A DNA stretch of 47,248 bases from a virus (lineage: Duplodnaviria; Heunggongvirae; Uroviricota; Caudoviricetes): IMG/VR virus record IMGVR_UViG_2711768052_000011. The stretch is one strand, 5' to 3'. Below the pieces are notes generated by a model, which made no database searches, was not told the origin of the DNA, and was given only the letters and a program-made list of their open reading frames with translations. Of the stretch, positions 30,632 through 30,833 are shown one piece after another; position 1 is the first letter of the stretch; every line of letters begins with the position of its first letter. Made by a program: the position numbers and the translations under genes.

Positions 30632-30680
30632 TGGAGCGAGCAGCGGGAATCGAACCCGCATCATCAGCTTGGAAGGCTGA
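30632..30680 (-). pseudogene. tRNA-Gly(UCC)-like 3' fragment (anticodon arm, T-arm, acceptor 3' strand, CCA)
   Basis: Minus strand TCAGCCTTCCAAGCTGATGATGCGGGTTCGATTCCCGCTGCTCGCTCCA matches E. coli glyT 3' half by recall; 5' acceptor strand not complementary. Confidence 0.5.
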
Positions 30681-30833
30681 TGCTCTATCCGGATGAGCTA
30701 GTGACGGTTTTATTGCCACATCCGTAACAACAGTCGACAGGAATAATATACATTCAGAATCAGCCGCCTTAGCTAATTGTGCAACCATCTGCTCTTTGCA
30801 AGTGCACTTAACGTCCTGCGCCACTTTTCAGGC

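Follow-up and report, generated by a model that had tools for sequence, protein, structure and literature searches.

A hybrid tRNA-Arg/tRNA-Gly pseudogene between the antiterminator and lysis genes of a lambdoid prophage, most probably left by a 157-bp deletion in a tandem tRNA cluster

What is the tRNA-like sequence that lies between the late antiterminator gene Q and the lysis genes in the viral record IMGVR_UViG_2711768052_000011? The whole stretch of DNA analysed here, 47,248 nucleotides long and called the window in the following, carries its late genes on the minus strand. A preliminary description made from the sequence alone had reported about 48 nt on that strand that match the anticodon arm, T arm, 3' acceptor strand and CCA end of a tRNA-Gly(UCC), preceded by seven nucleotides (CCGTCAC) that cannot pair with the acceptor strand TGCTCGC. 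The segment was thought to be either a decayed phage tRNA or an attachment-site-like remnant of recombination with a tRNA-integrating element.

Comparison with the host tRNA-Gly gene and with related prophages bears out the match to tRNA-Gly(UCC). The stretch 30680..30632(-) is identical to the prophage tRNA-Gly(UCC) of E. coli A30 and EC71 (49/49) and differs at one position from glyT of E. coli K-12 (48/49). The Rfam tRNA model RF00005, whose gathering score is 29, matches 30643..30700(-) with 48.5 bits and, calculated for the whole window, E = 1.9e-7; the tRNA-Gly-like match is far above chance. The alignment covers positions 8-63 of the 71 positions of the model. It takes in the D, anticodon and T arms with their conserved loop residues, all aligned at high posterior probability, and leaves out the acceptor stem. 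The extent first proposed was right for the Gly 3' portion but too short for the element as a whole, as all 76 nt from 30707 to 30632 are tRNA-derived.

Read on the minus strand from 30707 to 30632, the element has the sequence CCGTCAC TA GCTC ATCCGGATA GAGC A TCAGC CTTCCAA GCTGA TGAT GCGGG TTCGATT CCCGC TGCTCGC T CCA. Its first 27 nt correspond, in order, to the 5' acceptor strand CCGTCAC (30707..30701), the dinucleotide UA, the D stem-loop and residue 26 of a tRNA-Arg(UCG), the D arm of the element running from 30700 to 30681. The next nine nucleotides, TCAGCCTTC, comprise the 5' anticodon stem and the first four bases of the loop, and lie inside a stretch in which the Arg and Gly genes match at 17 of 19 positions. 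The Gly-specific part that follows holds the remaining anticodon loop (UCC), the 3' anticodon stem, the variable loop, the T arm, the strand TGCTCGC, the discriminator U and a CCA terminus at 30632. The anticodon loop reads CUUCCAA and thus specifies the anticodon UCC (Gly). The positions of these parts and of the neighbouring features are given in Table 1.

Table 1 The tRNA remnant, its parts and the surrounding late-region features, with positions in the window
Feature	Position	Strand	Basis
Late antiterminator Q, upstream of the element	31649..32344	minus	PF06323 Phage_antiter_Q, E = 6.6e-93; RefSeq SE11 homologue
PemK/MazF-family toxin gene, between Q and the remnant	31054..31455	minus	PF02452, E = 5.6e-14
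Two intrinsic-terminator-like hairpins, upstream of the remnant	30900..30878, 30858..30843	minus	Consensus scan
Chimeric Arg/Gly tRNA pseudogene, entire element (76 nt)	30632..30707	minus	Alignments, Rfam match, no default ARAGORN call
tRNA-Arg(UCG)-derived part (residues 1-27)	30681..30707	minus	27/27 identity to A30, EC71 and Z1323CEC0014
Deletion junction, 9-nt TCAGCCTTC	30672..30680	minus	Exact in the anticodon arms of both tRNA-Arg(UCG) and tRNA-Gly(UCC)
tRNA-Gly(UCC)-specific part	30632..30671	minus	With the 9-mer, 49/49 identity to the phage tRNA-Gly of A30 and EC71
TerB-family gene, downstream	29541..29966	minus	Pfam
DUF3927, after TerB	29392..29544	minus	Pfam

The origin of the two halves becomes clear when the locus is compared with that of its relatives. 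In the prophages of E. coli A30, EC71 and Z1323CEC0014, intact genes for tRNA-Arg(UCG), tRNA-Thr(UGU) and tRNA-Gly(UCC) are present between Q and the lysis genes, with flanks collinear with those of the window (RefSeq annotation for A30, ARAGORN for EC71 and Z1323CEC0014; the cluster is annotated by RefSeq in EC71 as well). When 451 bp around the element were compared by megablast with 5,426 complete E. coli genomes, full-length matches of 100% were obtained in three of them, SE11, EC21Z-048 and GPEC79-13-647, in none of which RefSeq has anything annotated at the locus of the element. Other matches contain the same flanks around some 157 extra bases that are annotated as tRNA-Arg, tRNA-Thr and tRNA-Gly. 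Aligned with its relatives, the window is identical up to residue 27 of tRNA-Arg, then shows one clean gap of 157 columns, and regains full identity at the anticodon stem of tRNA-Gly, keeping it past the CCA. The two copies of TCAGCCTTC in A30 start at positions 1368 and 1525 of the locus extracted from that genome (L006), 157 bp apart, and the window retains a single copy (30680..30672); the missing DNA thus amounts to exactly 157 bp, and the crossover took place within these nine nucleotides. What is missing are the 3' two-thirds of tRNA-Arg, the entire tRNA-Thr(UGU) and the first 26 nt of tRNA-Gly. CCGTCAC is the true 5' acceptor strand of tRNA-Arg(UCG), and its partner GTGACGG has gone with the deleted DNA. 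Identity to A30 is 98.8% over 346 nt downstream and 94% over approximately 200 nt upstream.

The two halves thus come from two different genes that are intact in relatives, the flanks are collinear and interrupted by a single gap, and the junction lies in a direct repeat. We put the probability that the element is a hybrid Arg/Gly tRNA pseudogene generated by a 157-bp deletion in a tandem tRNA cluster at roughly 93%. The comparisons show the anatomy of the element, how the parent cluster is arranged in the relatives, where exactly the junction lies and that the allele has a single origin. Of the idea of a decayed phage tRNA, the non-functional phage tRNA stands; the bare Gly 3' half gives way to a fusion of 27 nt of Arg with 49 nt of Gly.

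In the proposed course of events, a lambdoid prophage ancestor would have carried tRNA-Arg(UCG), tRNA-Thr(UGU) and tRNA-Gly(UCC) in tandem between Q and the lysis cassette. Recombination or replication slippage between the two direct copies of TCAGCCTTC would then have removed the intervening 157 bp and joined residues 1-27 of tRNA-Arg to the anticodon arm, T arm, 3' acceptor strand and CCA of tRNA-Gly. With a 5' acceptor strand from Arg and a 3' acceptor strand from Gly, the product would have no acceptor stem and its transcript would undergo neither RNase P maturation nor charging, leaving a prophage devoid of all three tRNAs. The outcome resembles that of other recombination events between neighbouring tRNA genes, in which a deletion between direct repeats in tandem, similar genes leaves a single hybrid; the loss of one of the tandem tyrT genes of E. 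coli is an example. The present case differs from these in that the partners have different amino acid identities and share an exact stretch of 9 nt only (17/19 in the wider match), and this combination explains why the acceptor strands are mismatched and the hybrid is dead rather than a working copy.

The exact 38-nt junction sequence was found in the three complete genomes named above, in one IMG/VR contig and in two metagenome contigs, and had no match among the GTDB species representatives. In all copies with enough flanking sequence, the flanks are essentially identical, which indicates that they go back to one deletion event, after which the module would have spread among mosaic prophages or have been inherited while neighbouring DNA was replaced. 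One of the metagenome contigs (L009) aligns with the window over 4.6 kb (29515..34133) at 94.5% identity, and the BLAST mismatch map is free of mismatches from 29800 to 31700. The window itself is distinct from SE11: local identity is 99.3%, and elsewhere it is 96-98% with partial coverage. A broader pattern, combining any D-stem end AGAGCN with the Gly arm, retrieved only the same contig from IMG/VR and no independent chimera, and the exact 32-mer of the intact Arg allele had no match in IMG/VR. The recurrence of the junction also bears on the trivial explanation that similar tRNA repeats were collapsed into a false deletion during sequencing or assembly. The junction does lie in a short repeat between similar sequences, where assemblers can in principle collapse, but a repeat of 9 nt is far too short for the collapse of reads, and the same junction recurs in three complete genomes that were sequenced independently, in an IMG/VR contig and in the window, as well as in two metagenome contigs that belong to different ENA assembly records. 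An artefact can be given practically no weight.

The proposal of an attachment-site-like remnant implies that the 3' part of a tRNA-Gly was brought in or left behind by an integrative element targeting tRNA-Gly. The Gly-derived part indeed runs exactly from the anticodon stem to the CCA, the portion typically duplicated by tRNA-targeting integrases, and it is 48/49 identical to the host glyT. It also resembles the att tRNA fragments at prophage borders in being a CCA-ending tRNA 3' portion without a 5' acceptor strand of its own; in K-12, such fragments presumably include pauD (an argU fragment, DLP12) and ptwF (a thrW fragment, CP4-6). Border fragments are located at the ends of elements, however, where the 3' end of a host tRNA lies beside unrelated DNA, whereas the sequence studied here lies inside the prophage, with Q on one side and the lysis genes on the other, and is joined to the beginning of a neighbouring tRNA gene: immediately 5' of the junction are residues 1-27 of a tRNA-Arg of the same cluster rather than the flank of an element or of the host. 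Both flanks are collinear with those in prophages with the intact cluster; neither extra DNA nor an integrase gene nor a second copy of the repeat is present at the junction, and ARAGORN and Rfam found no partner tRNA or other tRNA-like match in the window. On these alignments the att-site interpretation appears very improbable and is rejected.

The same hybrid could have been formed along another route, either by a tyrosine recombinase using the two anticodon stem-loops as pseudo-att sites or by unequal exchange between prophages residing in the same cell. Integrases that target tRNA genes classically cross over in the anticodon stem-loop, and this is where the junction is located. The unequal divergence from A30 on the two sides of the junction (94% identity upstream, 98.8% downstream) is what would be expected from two parents, and the lambdoid prophages in these genomes are highly mosaic. 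Against this, nothing specific points to a recombinase. The anticodon loops differ at their central base, CUUCGAA in Arg and CUUCCAA in Gly, and such a difference disfavours strand exchange by a tyrosine recombinase. A deletion between short homologies explains all observations with fewer assumptions, and we regard these other routes as unlikely, albeit by far the most serious of the alternatives. None of the sampled genomes contains the direct parent, that is, an intact cluster combined with the upstream variants of the window. Six transitions within about 22 nt at 30729..30750 (positions 30729, 30734, 30736, 30737, 30739 and 30750), just upstream of the start of tRNA-Arg, are absent from the three intact alleles, which are identical to each other in this region; the cluster of changes may mark a promoter or leader of the tRNAs that has decayed or diverged, or simply a mosaic boundary. 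With no parent allele among the genomes sampled, with these window-specific transitions and with the Q-PemK segment being joined elsewhere to unrelated genes, the intramolecular route and an exchange between phages are indistinguishable.

The mosaic structure is visible in the DNA upstream of the remnant. The segment comprising Q and the PemK/MazF-family gene occurs with 100% identity in other E. coli prophages, where it is followed by a hypothetical gene and a DNA methyltransferase gene, without tRNAs; an intact cluster behind this segment was not found among the genomes with the 100% identical module. Q-PemK is thus a separate piece of the mosaic. The PemK/MazF-family gene stands alone, with no obvious antitoxin ORF adjoining it. 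Homology to the intact-cluster prophages starts near the terminator-like hairpins, between 30847 and 30858 for A30 and EC71 and at 30980 for Z1323CEC0014. As the last of these has a Q of a different family, the start at 30980 suggests a leftover late-promoter region of another module. Two near-duplicate terminator hairpins, CCCGCCGCCGAGCGGG-T7 at 31567-31582(-) and CCCGCCACTGAGCGGG-T7 at 30843-30858(-), are each situated downstream of a promoter-like site (31665-31637(-) and 31018-30990(-), respectively), and these look like two tandem units of late promoter and terminator flanking the PemK insertion. Downstream of the remnant, the TerB and DUF3927 genes are followed by two holin genes and an M15 endolysin gene; according to the annotations, TerB, DUF3927 and holin genes likewise follow the intact cluster in EC71 and A30.

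Some further features were noted in the window. The annotated features under the match to its first 22 kb include ydfJ, suggesting that the prophage adjoins this gene, which we take to be the site of Qin in K-12. A full-length match to the small RNA DicF, presumably known from the Qin prophage of K-12, is present at 42446-42497(+) (RF00039, 76.7 bits). At 34350-34524(-), a match to the sok antitoxin RNA (RF01794, 110 bits) shows that the prophage has a toxin-antitoxin locus of the hok/sok type.

The place of the element, downstream of Q and the terminators and upstream of the lysis genes, is that of the tRNA clusters in the late region of lambdoid phages. The suggestion that lambdoid phages often carry tRNA genes here agrees with the intact tRNAs of the relatives at this exact spot and with a comparative study of Stx phages, in which the tRNA genes were always located between q and stx (PMC7366253). 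In Stx2a, Stx2c and Stx2d phages, a Met(Ile)-Arg-Arg tRNA triplet is present between Q and the lysis/stx genes, and the Stx2f phage phi467 carries tRNA-Thr and tRNA-Gly (PMC7366253). Clusters of the type X-Thr-Gly, in which X is Arg or Ile, were present at a coverage of at least 80% in 577 of the 5,426 complete E. coli genomes, and also in the sequenced phages phi467 (Stx2f), vB_EcoS-683R6, PhiR47_1, JLK-2012 and SerU-LTIIb. The parent Arg-Thr-Gly cluster shares the Thr-Gly pair with phi467, vB_EcoS-683R6 and the others, and differs from the example clusters of the Stx2a/c/d phages and phi467 in the UCG anticodon of its tRNA-Arg. The cluster of phage 933W is, as we understand it, named ileZ-argN-argO; the literature searched contained nothing directly on ileZ, argN or argO and nothing relevant on tRNA-Arg, tRNA-Thr or tRNA-Gly of lambdoid phages. 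Unlike all these clusters, that of the window has no intact member left: one fused remnant takes the place of three genes.

The tRNA-Gly of the cluster also has a history of its own. The prophage tRNA-Gly(UCC) of Z1323CEC0014 (L003:1852-1926) is identical to the K-12 host gene glyT (L010:374-448) over all 75 positions. The only difference between the Gly part of the window and K-12 glyT is a C-to-T change in the 3' acceptor strand, which EC71 and A30 share; the tRNA-Gly of the latter two has a second acceptor-stem change, C6 to U in the 5' strand, and both changes result in G-U wobble pairs. The full identity in Z1323CEC0014, together with the two wobble changes in EC71 and A30, suggests that the prophage tRNA-Gly was captured from the host glyT or converted by it. 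The Gly-derived 49 nt of the element are thus one base apart from glyT of the thrU-tyrU-glyT-thrT operon; unlike glyT, the element is located in a prophage, lacks the equivalent of glyT residues 1-26 and has the C-to-T change in its 3' acceptor strand. With respect to the middle gene of the cluster, it was observed that tRNA-Thr(UGU) of EC71 and A30 (L001:1729-1804 and L006:1420-1492) ends in TCA rather than CCA, and that its length is 73 nt according to PGAP and 76 nt according to ARAGORN. The alleles of Z1323CEC0014, O177:H21 and 683R6 encode the CCA.

Could the remnant still act as a tRNA? The statement that CCGTCAC and TGCTCGC cannot pair can be read off the sequence, only two of the seven pairs of an acceptor stem being possible. 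This lack of an acceptor stem follows from the 5' strand being derived from Arg and the 3' strand from Gly. The conclusion that the element is not a functional tRNA is corroborated by ARAGORN, which at its default settings called no tRNA gene anywhere in the 47-kb window, by the Rfam alignment without an acceptor stem and by the folding results. At its minimum free energy, the 76-mer retains both the anticodon and the T hairpin but forms no acceptor stem, the structure being closed by accidental GAGC/GCUC pairing. A functional, non-canonical tRNA-Gly(UCC) of 71 nt, with ACUAGCU (30702..30696) as a substitute 5' acceptor strand, was nevertheless considered. When ARAGORN was run at 95% of its default threshold, it did report a defective 71-nt 'tRNA-Gly(tcc)' at 30702..30632, and the anticodon arm, T arm, discriminator U and CCA are all intact. 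This call stays under the default threshold, however, and its cloverleaf has only four of seven acceptor pairs, with mismatches A1-C72, U3-C70 and U7-U66, and two canonical pairs in the D stem. Folded into this cloverleaf, the RNA reaches -14.8 kcal/mol as compared with a minimum of -24.2 kcal/mol for the same molecule, a gap of 9.4 kcal/mol; the cloverleaf of the intact tRNA-Gly of A30 has -22.7 kcal/mol and is within 0.7 kcal/mol of its minimum of -23.4. The acceptor pairs G1-C72 and G3-C70 are identity elements for the E. coli glycyl-tRNA synthetase, and both have been lost. The pairing of ACUAGCU is an accidental by-product of a deletion that is documented by the relatives. A working tRNA-Gly is consequently considered highly improbable. 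From the missing acceptor stem, it is expected that the transcript would be neither processed by RNase P nor charged, and the tRNA pseudogene is almost certainly inert.

A different kind of function is conceivable, in which the chimera, with its intact Gly anticodon arm, T arm and CCA, is kept for the sake of an RNA role in the late transcript. It might, resembling a tRNA, direct processing or confer stability, or it might distract a nuclease that targets anticodons or a tRNA-binding defence protein. We would give it only a slim chance. The chimera is enclosed by a perfect 9-nt inverted repeat on the minus strand, CCGTCACTA (30707..30699) and TAGTGACGG (30612..30604), which as RNA may form a long-range stem of 9 bp between CCGUCACUA and UAGUGACGG at the same positions. 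Via this repeat, the flanked region of 131 nt folds with -36.8 kcal/mol, which corresponds to z = -3.3 relative to shuffled sequence; the RNA thus has some structure, although not that of a tRNA. The sequence GTGACGG at 30610..30604 is complementary to CCGTCAC and was considered as a compensatory change, a candidate that was discarded: the same 9-mer TAGTGACGG is present in A30 with its intact cluster, so that the inverted repeat is older than the deletion and does not compensate for it. In EC71 the downstream arm is TAGTAACGG, with one mismatch, and prophages with only Thr and Gly have a different sequence. No further similarity to the 3' half of tRNA-Arg was found around GTGACGG. The inverted repeat is treated here as a coincidence, yet no other feature would allow the remnant RNA a structural role. 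A terminator directly after the CCA was also looked for; the isolated fold is weak (-10.4 kcal/mol, z = -1.3), and the consensus scan made no call there. If an RNA role were real, selection instead of recent shared ancestry would account for the stretch of about 1.9 kb that is perfectly conserved while the rest of the prophage has diverged.

What the loss of the three tRNAs would have cost the prophage can be approached from codon usage. All three lost anticodons begin with U and read codons ending in A or G. In the ORFs of the window, CGA and CGG make up 26% of the Arg codons, ACA and ACG 57% of the Thr codons and GGA and GGG 40% of the Gly codons; the corresponding averages of the E. coli genome, about 16%, 40% and 26%, are lower. 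The host has its own thrU (UGU) and glyT (UCC). Of the three, only tRNA-Arg(UCG) is, to our knowledge, without a counterpart in K-12. The codon fractions of the window fit the codon-supply rationale for phage tRNAs, in the form in which it is cited from Bailly-Bechet et al. 2007 in PMC7946995. The deletion allele is present in several genomes in which the structural genes of the prophage read as intact ORFs, and its persistence fits a redundancy of the Thr and Gly copies with the host thrU and glyT, which would make these copies dispensable. The loss of the three tRNAs was probably close to neutral.

In conclusion, the significance of the finding beyond annotation is small: the unannotated tRNA-like match in the SE11-type prophage is a dead fusion of tRNA-Arg and tRNA-Gly. 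The SE11-type prophage lineage has lost three accessory tRNAs that many of its relatives carry, and the exact junction sequence is a convenient marker by which the lineage of this mosaic module can be followed. The locus also illustrates cleanly how a phage tRNA cluster can suffer deletions when the anticodon arms of adjacent tRNA genes have short stretches of identity.
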